NCBI RefSeq assembly: GCF_030013595.1
Contig: NZ_CP122768.1
DNA from: Escherichia coli
Lineage (GTDB): Bacteria > Pseudomonadota > Gammaproteobacteria > Enterobacterales > Enterobacteriaceae
DNA length: 64,000 nucleotides
Direction: 5' to 3' (one strand)
Position numbers and translations under genes: made by a program. Positions 3,236 to 45,345 of the stretch are shown in pieces; positions within the stretch are counted from its first letter, which is position 1; every line of letters starts with the position of its first letter. Under the pieces are notes generated by a model. That model made no database searches. It was not told the DNA's origin and worked only from the letters and a program-made list of their open reading frames with translations.

Positions 3236-3269
3236 ATGAACGAAGCAGTCAGGCGACTGCTTCGTTCAT
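3236..3269. terminator. 15-bp perfect inverted repeat hairpin between convergent lysU and ghoT
   Basis: atgaacgaagcagtc / loop aggc / gactgcttcgttcat read directly; no strong T-run, so function as a terminator is inferred from position. Confidence 0.4.
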
Positions 3270-4761: not shown

Positions 4762-6393
4762 ATGAGACATTCATTGCCCTACCGTATGTTACGCAAACGT
4801 CCGATGAAATTGAGTACCACTGTGATCTTAATGGTCAGCGCGGTACTGTTCTCGGTGCTATTGGTGGTGCATCTGATTTACTTCTCGCAAATCAGTGATA
4901 TGACGCGAGACGGGCTAGCCAACAAGGCGCTGGCAGTGGCGCGTACCCTCGCCGACTCGCCGGAAATCCGTCAGGGCTTGCAGAAAAAACCTCAGGAGAG
5001 CGGCATCCAGGCCATCGCGGAAGCCGTGCGCAAACGCAACGATCTGCTATTTATTGTCGTTACCGATATGCAAAGTCTTCGCTACTCGCATCCTGAAGCC
5101 CAGCGTATTGGTCAGCCATTTAAAGGTGATGACATCCTTAAAGCGCTGAATGGCGAAGAAAATGTCGCTATCAATCGCGGTTTTCTGGCGCAGGCTTTAC
5201 GCGTATTTACCCCCATCTACGATGAAAATCATAAACAAATTGGCGTGGTGGCGATCGGCCTTGAGTTAAGTCGCGTGACCCAACAGATCAATGACAGTCG
5301 CTGGAGCATTATCTGGTCGGTATTATTTGGCATGCTGGTCGGACTGATCGGCACCTGCATTCTGGTTAACGTACTGAAAAAAATCCTTTTTGGCCTGGAA
5401 CCCTACGAAATCTCCACGCTGTTTGAGCAGCGCCAGGCCATGTTGCAGTCTATCAAAGAAGGCGTCGTTGCCGTGGACGATCGCGGTGAAGTCACGCTGA
5501 TCAACGATGCCGCACAAGAATTGCTGAATTACCGTAAGTCGCAGGACGATGAGAAACTGTCGACGCTAAGCCACTCGTGGTCACAGGTGGTAGATGTCTC
5601 GGAAGTGTTACGCGACGGTACCCCGCGGCGCGACGAAGAGATTACGATTAAAGACCGGCTATTACTGATCAACACCGTTCCGGTGCGCAGTAATGGCGTT
5701 ATCATCGGTGCCATTTCAACCTTCAGGGACAAAACTGAAGTACGTAAACTGATGCAGCGACTCGATGGTCTGGTCAACTATGCTGACGCACTTCGTGAAC
5801 GATCCCACGAATTTATGAATAAATTGCACGTGATTCTCGGATTATTGCATCTGAAGAGTTATAAGCAGTTGGAAGATTACATTCTCAAAACAGCCAATAA
5901 CTATCAGGAAGAGATTGGCTCTCTGCTGGGTAAGATCAAATCTCCGGTTATCGCTGGTTTTTTAATCAGCAAGATTAACCGCGCGACCGATTTAGGCCAT
6001 ACGCTGATTTTAAACAGTGAAAGCCAGCTGCCAGACAGCGGCAGTGAAGACCAGGTCGCGACGCTGATTACCACGTTGGGAAATCTGATAGAAAACGCGC
6101 TGGAAGCATTAGGGCCGGAACCCGGAGGCGAAATTAGCGTAACATTGCACTACCGTCACGGCTGGCTGCACTGTGAAGTTAATGATGATGGACCGGGGAT
6201 CGCACCCGATAAAATCGATCACATTTTTGACAAAGGTGTCTCGACAAAAGGAAGCGAGCGAGGCGTCGGTTTAGCACTTGTCAAACAACAGGTAGAAAAT
6301 CTCGGCGGCAGCATCGCCGTGGAATCGGAACCCGGGATTTTCACACAATTTTTTGTCCAGATACCCTGGGACGGGGAGAGGTCGAACAGATGA
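4762..6393 (+). CDS. dcuS: C4-dicarboxylate sensor histidine kinase
   Basis: ORF track 543 aa, ATG start; two transmembrane segments, periplasmic sensing domain, PAS and HATPase motifs (DDGPGI); overlaps dcuR start. Confidence 0.93.
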   Translation: MRHSLPYRMLRKRPMKLSTTVILMVSAVLFSVLLVVHLIYFSQISDMTRDGLANKALAVARTLADSPEIRQGLQKKPQESGIQAIAEAVRKRNDLLFIVVTDMQSLRYSHPEAQRIGQPFKGDDILKALNGEENVAINRGFLAQALRVFTPIYDENHKQIGVVAIGLELSRVTQQINDSRWSIIWSVLFGMLVGLIGTCILVNVLKKILFGLEPYEISTLFEQRQAMLQSIKEGVVAVDDRGEVTLINDAAQELLNYRKSQDDEKLSTLSHSWSQVVDVSEVLRDGTPRRDEEITIKDRLLLINTVPVRSNGVIIGAISTFRDKTEVRKLMQRLDGLVNYADALRERSHEFMNKLHVILGLLHLKSYKQLEDYILKTANNYQEEIGSLLGKIKSPVIAGFLISKINRATDLGHTLILNSESQLPDSGSEDQVATLITTLGNLIENALEALGPEPGGEISVTLHYRHGWLHCEVNDDGPGIAPDKIDHIFDKGVSTKGSERGVGLALVKQQVENLGGSIAVESEPGIFTQFFVQIPWDGERSNR

Positions 6394-7109
6394 TCAATGT
6401 ATTAATTATCGATGACGACGCAATGGTCGCGGAGCTGAATCGCCGATACGTAGCACAAATCCCAAGCTTTCAATGCTGTGGAACAGCCTCGACGCTGGAG
6501 AAAGCCAAAGAGATTATCTTCAATAGCGATACGCCTATCGACCTGATATTGCTCGATATCTATATGCAAAAAGAGAACGGGCTCGATTTACTGCCTGTCC
6601 TGCATAACGCGCGTTGCAAAAGTGATGTGATTGTCATCTCCTCCGCAGCCGATGCGGCAACCATTAAAGATTCGCTGCATTACGGTGTCGTGGATTACCT
6701 GATCAAACCCTTCCAGGCTTCCCGCTTTGAAGAGGCGCTCACCGGCTGGCGGCAAAAGAAAATGGCGCTGGAAAAACATCAGTATTATGACCAGGCCGAG
6801 CTTGATCAGCTAATCCACGGCAGCAGCTCCAACGAGCAGGATCCTCGTCGCTTGCCAAAAGGCTTAACGCCGCAGACGTTACGCACGCTGTGCCAGTGGA
6901 TTGACGCGCATCAGGACTATGAGTTTTCAACCGACGAGCTGGCTAACGAGGTTAACATTTCGCGTGTTTCCTGCCGTAAATACCTCATCTGGCTGGTCAA
7001 CTGCCACATCTTGTTCACCAGTATCCATTATGGCGTCACGGGGCGTCCGGTTTACCGTTACCGTATTCAGGCAGAACACTACTCACTGCTGAAACAATAT
7101 TGCCAATAA
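6390..7109 (+). CDS. dcuR: C4-dicarboxylate response regulator
   Basis: ORF track 239 aa; receiver domain (LIIDDD, LLDIYM) plus C-terminal DNA-binding domain; ATGA overlap with dcuS stop. Confidence 0.93.
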   Translation: MINVLIIDDDAMVAELNRRYVAQIPSFQCCGTASTLEKAKEIIFNSDTPIDLILLDIYMQKENGLDLLPVLHNARCKSDVIVISSAADAATIKDSLHYGVVDYLIKPFQASRFEEALTGWRQKKMALEKHQYYDQAELDQLIHGSSSNEQDPRRLPKGLTPQTLRTLCQWIDAHQDYEFSTDELANEVNISRVSCRKYLIWLVNCHILFTSIHYGVTGRPVYRYRIQAEHYSLLKQYCQ

Positions 7110-7161
7110 CGGATCGCTGGTTATCTGTAAGTAATAATTATTACCGTAATGCAAAATATTC

Positions 7162-7202
7162 CTGGCACAAGTTACATTCTTCATCAGTAAAACTTGTGCC
7201 AG
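7162..7202. repeat. Perfect 12-bp inverted repeat (ctggcacaagtt N17 aacttgtgccag) just downstream of dcuR
   Basis: Read directly; the right arm overlaps a TTGTG-N4-ATCAA motif at 7194..7207 resembling a CRP/FNR-type site. Function not established. Confidence 0.5.
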
Positions 7203-7679
7203 ATCAAATATAATTATCCCTCCATCATCGTTAAAAATTAATATCTCTTCAGATGAACGGTGTTTTTAATTTCAAAACGCTAACAAAAGTTAATTAACTA
7301 TTATGTCACCCGCATTATGTGTATTTTTACCCACAAATGGGTAGATCAGATTAATCTATAAACCTAATGATATCTGCCCTGAGAACAAAAAATAGACCGA
7401 TAAATATCAATAAGATAACAGCAAACAAAACATTAACATCTGCGCAGTACAAACTATAAACCCATCGCCAGAGAGTCATTCTCTCTGAAAAAGCCGCTTA
7501 TCACAGTGCATAAATTTGCCGCTGCTTTAATCAGCCAATATTCACTGTGAGGTATTTGCTAAAGCCGGTAACGACCAAACGGATATTTAGTCAGGCTCTG
7601 AAAACAGTTCATACAAAACAGAACGTGACTGTGATCTATTCAGCAAAAATTTAAATAGGATTATCGCGAGGGTTCACAC

Positions 7680-9020
7680 ATGTTATTTACTATCCAACTT
7701 ATCATAATACTGATATGTCTGTTTTATGGTGCCAGAAAGGGTGGTATCGCGCTGGGTTTATTAGGCGGTATCGGTCTGGTCATTCTGGTCTTCGTCTTCC
7801 ACCTTCAGCCAGGTAAACCACCGGTTGATGTCATGCTGGTTATCATTGCGGTGGTGGCGGCATCGGCGACCTTGCAAGCTTCGGGCGGTCTTGATGTCAT
7901 GCTGCAAATTGCCGAGAAGCTGCTGCGCCGCAACCCGAAATATGTCTCAATTGTCGCGCCGTTTGTGACCTGTACGCTGACCATTCTTTGCGGTACGGGT
8001 CATGTGGTTTACACCATTCTGCCGATCATCTACGACGTCGCTATTAAGAACAACATCCGTCCGGAACGCCCGATGGCGGCAAGTTCTATCGGTGCACAGA
8101 TGGGGATTATCGCCAGTCCGGTGTCGGTTGCAGTCGTGTCTCTGGTTGCGATGCTGGGTAATGTCACCTTTGATGGTCGCCATCTTGAGTTCCTCGACCT
8201 GCTAGCAATCACCATTCCATCGACGTTAATCGGTATCCTGGCGATCGGTATCTTCAGCTGGTTCCGCGGTAAAGATCTGGATAAAGACGAAGAGTTCCAG
8301 AAATTCATCTCCGTACCGGAAAACCGTGAGTATGTTTACGGTGATACCGCGACGCTGCTGGATAAAAAACTGCCGAAAAGCAACTGGCTTGCAATGTGGA
8401 TCTTCCTCGGGGCAATCGCTGTAGTCGCCCTTCTTGGTGCTGATTCGGACCTGCGTCCATCCTTCGGCGGCAAACCGCTGTCGATGGTACTGGTTATTCA
8501 GATGTTTATGCTGCTGACCGGGGCGCTGATTATTATCCTGACCAAAACCAATCCCGCGTCTATCTCAAAAAACGAAGTCTTCCGTTCCGGTATGATCGCC
8601 ATCGTGGCGGTGTACGGTATCGCATGGATGGCAGAAACCATGTTCGGTGCGCATATGTCTGAAATTCAGGGCGTACTGGGTGAAATGGTGAAAGAGTATC
8701 CGTGGGCCTATGCCATTGTTCTGCTGCTGGTTTCCAAGTTTGTAAACTCTCAGGCTGCGGCGCTGGCGGCGATTGTTCCGGTCGCGCTGGCGATCGGCGT
8801 TGATCCGGCATACATCGTGGCTTCAGCACCGGCTTGCTACGGTTATTACATCCTGCCGACTTATCCGAGCGATCTGGCAGCGATTCAGTTTGACCGTTCC
8901 GGCACCACCCACATCGGTCGCTTCGTCATCAACCACAGCTTTATTCTGCCGGGGTTGATTGGTGTGAGCGTATCGTGCGTCTTCGGCTGGATCTTCGCCG
9001 CGATGTACGGGTTCTTATAA
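7680..9020 (+). CDS. dcuB: Anaerobic C4-dicarboxylate:succinate antiporter
   Basis: ORF track 446 aa, ATG start; highly hydrophobic DcuA/DcuB family; preceded by a 570-bp AT-rich control region; fumB downstream. Confidence 0.93.
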
Positions 9021-9097: not shown

Positions 9098-10744
9098 ATG
9101 TCAAACAAACCCTTTATCTACCAGGCACCTTTCCCGATGGGGAAAGACAATACCGAATACTATCTACTCACTTCCGATTACGTTAGCGTTGCCGACTTCG
9201 ACGGCGAAACCATTCTGAAAGTGGAACCAGAAGCCCTGACCCTGCTGGCGCAGCAAGCCTTTCACGACGCTTCTTTCATGCTCCGTCCGGCACACCAGAA
9301 ACAGGTTGCGGCTATTCTTCACGATCCAGAAGCCAGCGAAAACGACAAGTACGTGGCGCTGCAATTCTTAAGAAACTCCGAAATCGCCGCCAAAGGCGTG
9401 CTGCCGACCTGCCAGGATACCGGCACCGCAATCATCGTCGGTAAAAAAGGTCAGCGCGTGTGGACCGGCGGCGGTGATGAAGAAGCACTGTCGAAAGGCG
9501 TGTACAACACCTATATCGAAGATAACCTGCGCTACTCGCAAAACGCGGCGCTGGACATGTACAAAGAGGTCAACACCGGCACTAACCTGCCTGCGCAAAT
9601 CGACCTGTACGCGGTAGATGGCGATGAGTACAAATTCCTCTGTGTCGCTAAAGGCGGCGGCTCTGCCAACAAAACCTATCTCTACCAGGAAACCAAAGCC
9701 CTGCTGACTCCCGGCAAACTGAAAAACTTCCTCGTTGAGAAAATGCGTACCCTCGGTACTGCAGCCTGCCCGCCGTACCATATCGCGTTTGTGATTGGCG
9801 GTACGTCTGCGGAAACCAACCTGAAAACCGTCAAGTTAGCAAGCGCTCACTATTATGATGAACTGCCGACGGAAGGGAACGAACATGGTCAGGCGTTCCG
9901 CGATGTCCAACTGGAACAGGAACTGCTGGAAGAGGCCCAGAAACTCGGTCTTGGCGCGCAGTTTGGCGGTAAATACTTCGCGCACGACATTCGCGTTATC
10001 CGTCTGCCACGTCACGGCGCATCCTTCCCGGTAGGCATGGGAGTCTCCTGCTCCGCTGACCGTAACATTAAAGCGAAAATCAACCGCGAAGGTATCTGGA
10101 TCGAAAAACTGGAACACAATCCAGGCCAGTACATTCCACAAGAACTGCGTCAGGCCGGTGAAGGCGAAGCGGTGAAAGTCGACCTTAACCGCCCGATGAA
10201 AGAGATCCTCGCCCAGCTTTCGCAATATCCGGTTTCCACTCGTTTGTCGCTCACCGGCACCATTATTGTGGGTCGAGATATTGCACACGCCAAGCTGAAA
10301 GAGCTGATTGACTCCGGTAAAGAACTTCCGCAGTACATCAAAGATCACCCGATCTACTACGCGGGTCCGGCGAAAACGCCTGCCGGTTATCCATCAGGTT
10401 CACTTGGCCCAACCACCGCAGGTCGTATGGACTCCTACGTGGATCTGCTGCAATCCCACGGCGGCAGCATGATCATGCTGGCGAAAGGTAACCGCAGTCA
10501 GCAGGTTACCGACGCGTGTCATAAACATGGCGGCTTCTACCTCGGTAGTATCGGCGGTCCGGCGGCGGTACTGGCGCAGCAGAGCATCAAGCATCTGGAA
10601 TGCGTCGCTTATCCGGAGCTGGGTATGGAAGCTATCTGGAAAATCGAAGTAGAAGATTTCCCGGCGTTTATCCTGGTCGATGACAAAGGCAACGACTTCT
10701 TCCAGCAAATCGTCAACAAACAGTGCGCGAACTGCACTAAGTAA
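9098..10744 (+). CDS. fumB: Class I fumarate hydratase, anaerobic isozyme
   Basis: ORF track 548 aa; [13 protein letters not shown] start; Fe-S hydro-lyase family; called fumB over fumA from dcuB synteny. Confidence 0.93.
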
Positions 10745-15290: not shown

Positions 15291-15572
15291 GCAGATCTCC
15301 TAGCTTGCTTGAATAACTTCATCATGGCAGGCGAATCTGCAGAAAACCTCCGGCTTCCAGGTTGAGCATTCCCATAAACTCAGATCCTACGTGAAGCAGC
15401 AGTAAATCTGAGTTTATGGGAATAAATTACCTGAAAAGCAGAGTTTTCGGCCTCAGAATGCTCGGACGGTCCCCTCGCCTCTCTGGGAAGAGAGTGAAAA
15501 CCGTGCTCCCACTCGCAGTCATCCTCCCTCACTCCTGCCATAATTCTGATATTCCAGGAAAGAGAGCCATCC
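15291..15572. promoter_or_regulatory. Divergent melR / melAB control region
   Basis: Intergenic region between divergent melA (minus) and melR (plus); known in E. coli to hold MelR and CRP sites. Individual sites not resolved by eye. Confidence 0.5.
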
Positions 15573-21518: not shown

Positions 21519-21544
21519 TTCCCCTTAATCCAGCAAACATAAAA

Positions 21545-21578
21545 GCCAACCTTAAGAACTTAAGGTTGGCTTAATTTT
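21545..21578 (+). terminator. Rho-independent terminator after adiC
   Basis: gccaaccttaag / cttaaggttggc 12-bp inverted repeat followed by ttaattttg. Confidence 0.7.
21559..21575 (+). promoter_or_regulatory. Putative PmrA (BasR) box upstream of eptA (CTTAAG-N5-CTTAAT)
   Basis: Direct repeat of hexamers with 5-bp spacer (cttaag gttgg cttaat) 47 bp upstream of the eptA ATG; fits the recalled PmrA-box consensus YTTAAK-N5-YTTAAK. Confidence 0.6.
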
Positions 21579-45299: not shown

Positions 45300-45308
45300 T
45301 GCCACTCA

Positions 45309-45345
45309 CTTTTGGGGGCGCTTAAGCCCCCAAAAGTATTTATTT
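45309..45345 (+). terminator. Rho-independent terminator after yjcS
   Basis: cttttgggggc / loop gcttaa / gcccccaaaag 11-bp perfect stem followed by tatttatttt. Confidence 0.75.

Follow-up and report, generated by a model that had tools for sequence, protein, structure and literature searches.

The 64,000-nt stretch of Escherichia coli DNA analysed here (the window) carries the gene order dcuS-dcuR-dcuB-fumB on its + strand. By NCBIfam naming of the open reading frames, DcuS is encoded at 4762–6393, DcuR at 6390–7109, DcuB at 7680–9020 and the class I fumarase FumB at 9098–10744, all on the + strand. Between the dcuR stop at 7109 and the dcuB ATG at 7680 lies a spacer of 570 bp (7110–7679). 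Its length and AT-richness, pointed out in an earlier sequence-only reading of this DNA, are confirmed, the GC content being 0.35 vs 0.50 in dcuR and 0.52 in dcuB. This 570-bp spacer is found in 5,414 of 5,426 complete genomes, and it aligns with E. coli K-12 MG1655 without indels. K-12 coordinates (NC_000913.3) are obtained as 4356424 minus the window position, and positions given in U00096.2 are converted to version 3 by adding 1,977. Four copies of the spacer are plasmid-borne. In NZ_CP107128, the match comprises the first 300 nt of the spacer only and adjoins a phage gpFI gene, which suggests a prophage or a rearrangement inside the spacer.

The eye-catching feature of the spacer is a perfect 12-bp inverted repeat, CTGGCACAAGTT-N17-AACTTGTGCCAG, which occupies exactly 7162–7202 as the sequence-only reading had it; the repeat finder returns arms that are 100% complementary. 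It does not open the spacer, as had been stated there, but starts 53 nt into it. The left arm (7162–7173), the predicted 17-nt loop (7174–7190) and the right arm (7191–7202) are all annotated on the + strand, and 29 bp separate the centres of the arms. In the predicted RNA fold, which has a free energy of −18.6 kcal/mol (z = −5.9; 0/200 shuffles fold as well), the stem could be extended by pairing UAC (7173–7175) with GUA (7187–7189). Perfect 12-mer inverted-repeat seeds with loops of 3–30 nt are expected at a mean of 0.3 per 64 kb in random first-order Markov sequences, and any such seed appears in 15% of the simulations; the repeat exceeds chance because simulated 64-kb sequences rarely contain one. 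Four further short-looped perfect inverted repeats, each 12 bp or longer, occur elsewhere in the window (3236–3269, 15369–15422, 21543–21572 and 45308–45337) and are probably terminators. Membership in a REP/BIME-like repeat family was rejected, as a 91-nt query covering the segment has a median of one place per genome across 5,400 genomes.

The right arm covers the left half and spacer of an FNR site, TTGTGCCAGATCAA, located at 7194–7207 (no strand assigned) from a published ChIP peak and K-12 coordinate mapping. Myers et al. (2013; PMC3688515) reported an FNR ChIP-seq/ChIP-chip peak upstream of dcuB with a predicted site, TTGATCTGGCACAA, at position 4,347,240 of U00096.2. When mapped through the K-12 alignment, this reported site is the exact reverse complement of window positions 7194–7207, so that the dcuB-fumB FNR operator is identical to the right-arm site in both sequence and genomic position. 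The match of TTGTG-CCAG-ATCAA to the TTGAT-N4-ATCAA consensus covers 8/10 positions and is the joint-best in the spacer. The dcuB-fumB operon is listed as directly FNR-activated, with one FNR site, at −132.5 from the dcuB start, and the supplementary expression table gives values of 0.028 (~0.03) for dcuB and ~0.05 for fumB (Myers et al., 2013; PMC3688515). A consensus match, in vivo occupancy by FNR and FNR-dependent expression of the adjacent operon (the latter two from Myers et al., 2013) are found together at this site, at a distance far from the usual activating positions of −41.5, −61.5 and the like. The right arm belongs to an FNR activator site of dcuB that had been documented before, and the earlier suggestion of a regulator site stands for this arm. 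The motif at 7194–7207 had been described as CRP/FNR-class: its FNR part holds, and a CRP site in the right arm was rejected, being absent among the matches of at least 7/10. Work by Golby and colleagues from 1998 is reportedly a further source for the dcuB-fumB FNR operator. The operator literature (Myers, Golby) makes no mention that the left half and spacer of the site form an arm of a perfect 12-bp repeat. A sigma-54 reading of TGGCAC in the arms was also discarded by eye, the two nucleotides found 10 nt past the GG being AT on the + strand and AC on the − strand, not GC, as was an IHF consensus in the loop.

Transcription of dcuB starts near 7333, as derived from the FNR site at −132.5 (Myers et al., 2013), with a −10 hexamer TATTTT at 7322–7327 on the + strand. 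DcuB and DcuSR matter for gut colonisation by E. coli, and the spacer is a recurrent target of adaptive mutation there (PMC5094792). One gut-adaptive change upstream of dcuB, A to T at U00096.2 position 4347121 (PMC5094792), maps to T7326A and converts TATTTT into TATTAT, an improved −10 hexamer. IS2 insertions upstream of dcuB raise its anaerobic expression (PMC5094792); the published adaptive insertions map to 7321 and 7342 for IS2 and to 7557 for IS5, and none of the mapped mutations falls in the repeat. The start near 7333 is supported because the adaptive −10 mutation at 7326 and the IS2 positions agree with it. The dcuB leader accounts for the final 347 nt of the spacer (about 7333–7679), and the name “dcuB leader” given earlier to all of 7110–7679 is apt for this part and not for the first 223 nt.

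Upstream of the −10 hexamer, a near-invariant, AT-rich block C (TGTTTTTAATTTCAAAACGCTAACAAAAGTTAATTAACTATTA; 7262–7310, −71 to −23, no strand assigned), with 2 of its 49 sites variable, is probably the DcuR activator site. This is suggested by its position and conservation, taken together with the reported work of Abo-Amer and of Janausch from 2004. The inverted heptamers TACCCAC-AA-ATGGGTA (7328–7343, no strand assigned) overlap the start site and resemble a NarL 7-2-7 arrangement, with 11/14 matches to TACCCCT-NN-AGGGGTA, and may function in NarL binding. Nitrate repression of dcuB by NarL is said to have been described by Golby in 1998. A candidate CRP-like site, TGTGATCTATTCAGCA, with 7/10 matches, is located at 7630–7645 (no strand assigned) in a conserved block next to dcuB. 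Together, these assignments provide a coordinate-level map of the spacer, with the FNR site at −132.5, the probable DcuR block, the −10 hexamer and start, the NarL-like element and the 347-nt leader. A consensus promoter scan additionally returned a weak promoter-like site on the minus strand (TTAACG-16-TATATT, 7234–7207), with a predicted antisense start at ~7200, which falls within the FNR site, and a −10 hexamer that shares positions with the conserved ATCAAATATA.

Species-representative genomes were scanned for DcuR, and among the 80 loci recovered the dcuR-dcuB arrangement is seen in Escherichia, Citrobacter, Salmonella, Trabulsiella and Intestinirhabdus. When 26 spacers from the first four of these genera are aligned, Intestinirhabdus being left out, six conserved blocks emerge: A (7119–7160), B (the FNR site), C (7262–7310), D (the −10 hexamer, start and NarL-like heptamers), E (7461–7487) and F, which adjoins dcuB. 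The FNR site is common to all four genera, and its AGATCAA is invariant among the 26 sequences. The left arm of the repeat is present in Escherichia only and absent from Citrobacter, Salmonella and Trabulsiella. Conservation across relatives, which had been put forward as a check on the repeat, is split, with the operator kept in four genera and the left arm confined to one. Apart from that of C. amalonaticus S646, the non-Escherichia spacers contain an extra 60–180 bp past ~7378 (L007–L026 and L080); this segment, missing in Escherichia, includes a conserved hairpin, GTAGCAATGGAGACCATGCTAC.

In most lineages outside Escherichia, a single strong hairpin separates the dcuR stop from the FNR site. 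Its top is formed by block A (GTTAT..GTAAYAATTATTAC..AATAATGAAAAAT; 7119–7160, + strand), and its base is lineage-specific. The C. freundii group has GGGATT/AATCCC at the base and is the only one with a T-run 3′ of the hairpin; C. amalonaticus has CTTAACCTT/AAGGTTAAG, the R56 group CAGGCCTGG/CCAGGCTG and Salmonella AGCGTT/AACGCT. Five representatives, none of them from Trabulsiella, fold with −14 to −24 kcal/mol (z = −2.6 to −5.3). The E. coli stretch 7110–7161, which holds block A, has no fold of its own (−3.3 kcal/mol, z = +1.1), and the E. coli repeat sits immediately 3′ of it. The sequence conservation of block A exceeds what structure alone explains. Its GTTATCTGTAAGTAATAATTATTACCGTAATGCAAAAT, conserved in sequence across the four genera, contains a perfect 14-bp palindrome, GTAATAATTATTAC. 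A Fur box in block A is unlikely, as dcuB-fumB is unaffected by Fur in Salmonella.

Complements of the FNR half-site also occur outside Escherichia. C. amalonaticus S646 contains GCACAAATT, 76 nt and AATTTGTGC, with 9 bp complementary to the FNR half-site (p < 0.003), and S. diarizonae contains a complementary segment with p of about 0.02–0.06. These complements are of independent origin and lie at distances of 76–83 nt from the half-site.

Within Escherichia, the arms of the repeat vary little. Among eight Escherichia sequences (several E. coli lineages, E. albertii, E. whittamii and two further species), 0/12 sites vary in the left arm and 1/12 in the right arm, set beside 4/5 in the 5 nt preceding the left arm, 7/17 in the loop and 0.7–0.9 per site in neighbouring unconstrained stretches. 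The left arm is also essentially fixed across about 5,400 E. coli genomes. The sole change in the right arm, C7193T in E. albertii, produces a G-U pair, and a left-arm change in O157:H7, C7166T, produces a U-G pair with G7198 on the + strand. In minus-strand RNA, both changes would give A-C mismatches, and both also break the DNA symmetry. The statistics are weak, as the chance that both transitions are wobble-compatible is about 1 in 4, counting transitions only. In E. coli EP91B (NZ_CP149810), an IS1 element (748–1445 of the locus) lies in the repeat loop with a target duplication, ACATCCTT; it parts the arms by about 0.8 kb and amounts to a natural hairpin knock-out.

A composite reading, to which we give a little better than an even chance, is that the right arm is the FNR operator and the whole repeat an Escherichia-specific 3′ stem-loop of the dcuSR mRNA, with the left arm as its proposed 5′ strand. 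FNR on its operator, together with DcuR at about −71 to −23, would activate the dcuB-fumB promoter starting near 7333. The operator is the old component, common to Escherichia, Citrobacter, Salmonella and Trabulsiella, and the left arm is an addition specific to Escherichia. In the dcuSR transcript, the left arm would pair with the operator sequence as a 12-bp stem-loop 53 nt past the dcuR stop, taking the place of the ancestral hairpin built on block A. On the most economical view, a stem-loop closing the dcuSR mRNA has been retained in most of the lineages, and in Escherichia it would have been rebuilt around the operator as the 3′ strand. The stem-loop could then act as a weak terminator lacking a U-tract or, more likely, as an exonuclease barrier, with Rho-dependent termination in the C-rich, G-poor stretch downstream and 3′ exonucleases halting at the stem. 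In either role, the outcome would be a more stable dcuSR message and less read-through into the dcuB control region. The repeat, its occupancy by FNR, the conservation pattern and the exchange of hairpins from lineage to lineage are shown; from these comparisons we infer formation of the RNA in vivo, transcript ends at the stem-loop and an involvement of Rho. The earlier description of a dcuR terminator lacking a T-run is, on comparative evidence, the best-supported reading of the whole repeat.

Among the closest known counterparts are the 3′ stem-loops without U-tracts of Rho-terminated mRNAs, which in general are trimmed by exonucleases back to the stem (Dar and Sorek, 2018; PMC6061677). As in that class, a stable 3′ UTR stem-loop without a U-run is followed by C-rich, G-poor untranslated sequence, although the likeness lies in composition and position only. 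Over the 130 nt past the stem (7203–7332), C exceeds G at a C/G ratio of 2.08, and the GC skew is negative over 7000–7500; this C-rich, G-poor composition fits Rho-dependent termination followed by trimming to the stem. The Term-seq supplements of Adams (2021) and TERMITe (2025), which derive from aerobic cultures and whose listings may be incomplete, contain neither a dcuR 3′ end nor a dcuB entry.

That the repeat is instead a canonical Rho-independent terminator of dcuSR appears quite unlikely. It shares with intrinsic terminators a stable, GC-containing stem-loop on the coding strand, just 53 nt past the stop codon, and at the orthologous position in the C. freundii group a T-run follows the hairpin. 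The Escherichia hairpin nevertheless differs from them in the feature that defines the class: the sequence 3′ of the stem, AUCAAAUAUAAUUAU (ATCAAATATAATTAT directly after the stem), is no U-tract, and the 17-nt loop is large for a terminator. The repeat is not a canonical intrinsic terminator because of these two properties, and a consensus terminator scan of the region returned 0 sites. A structured RNA in a dcuB leader had also been proposed, and this idea, for example of a riboswitch or an attenuator, is now barely tenable. The repeat folds well, and in principle a dcuB transcript could include it by read-through from dcuSR; at −171 to −131, however, it lies upstream of the dcuB transcript and is excluded by position, the start near 7333 being downstream of it in agreement with the −10 mutation at 7326. 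Genera that retain the remainder of the dcuB control region moreover lack the left arm, and a search of 6800–7900 against Rfam gave chance-level hits only.

Two further explanations concern the left arm, and each has a small probability. The arm could act at the DNA level, as an inverted duplicate of the TTGTGCCAG half-site or as the site of another regulator, recruiting FNR or a partner. Its invariance in Escherichia accords with this, since an unknown DNA-binding protein could explain conservation within one genus; the arm duplicates the non-consensus left half of the FNR site, and extra architecture is conceivable given the unusual distance of −132.5. Yet the left arm read on the minus strand, TTGTG-CCAG-GAATA, lacks an ATCAA half and scores below 7/10 in the FNR scan, and the table of Myers et al. 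(2013; PMC3688515) lists one FNR site only for the operon. The substitutions seen keep RNA pairing, not DNA symmetry. The arms are 29 bp apart in E. coli and the complements 76–83 nt away in S646 and Salmonella; an RNA stem fits these variable distances and a dimeric protein site does not. Alternatively, the left arm may have no function, having arisen by chance or by local inverted duplication in the Escherichia ancestor and not yet decayed, which we consider improbable as well. Its limitation to one genus would be explained in this way. Against this stand its 0/12 variable sites in eight lineages, compared with 4/5 in the adjacent nucleotides and 0.7–0.9 per site in neutral-looking stretches, its near fixation in E. 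coli, and the simulations, which lead one to expect a perfect 12-bp repeat of this kind in no more than about 15% of random sequences of 64 kb.

If the composite of operator and dcuSR stem-loop is correct, the same 12 nt are used twice, as FNR operator in the DNA and as 3′ stem in the dcuSR RNA. A bolder version, which we offer speculatively and think unlikely to hold in full, is that operator complements arose separately in at least three lineages (Escherichia, C. amalonaticus S646 and S. diarizonae), under selection placing the dcuSR end exactly at the operator. Such dual use could couple the two units, for example by keeping read-through transcription from disturbing FNR and DcuR binding or, alternatively, by allowing FNR occupancy to modulate dcuSR 3′-end formation. 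The repeat is, at any rate, neither a new regulator site nor a riboswitch; it is the known FNR operator, taken up by Escherichia as a strand of the proposed dcuSR hairpin. The region is an ordinary regulatory region and represents no novel class of element. Its FNR site had been described before, the hairpin is an ordinary addition to a known kind, and their overlap is a modest curiosity. The overlap has a bearing on promoter dissection, as mutations in the FNR site also destroy the hairpin, and hairpin mutations in the right arm also hit the FNR site.

A second hairpin in the spacer lies within the dcuB 5′ UTR. Block E (7461–7487, about +129 to +155, + strand) consists of an invariant CCCATCGCC followed by a 7-bp hairpin, CAGAGAG-N5-CTCTCTG, in which 7469–7475 are paired with 7481–7487. 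The hairpin has no Rfam match in the search of 6800–7900. By pair counts in the alignment, 91% of cells are paired and 4/7 pairs have changed on both sides; 0/500 shuffles reach the observed value, and slid controls are 34–66% paired. The compensatory changes are distributed across Escherichia, Citrobacter, Salmonella and Trabulsiella, and 10 G-U cells point to RNA of the + strand. Of the two hairpins, that of block E has a stronger claim than the repeat at 7162–7202 to being a structured element of the dcuB leader.
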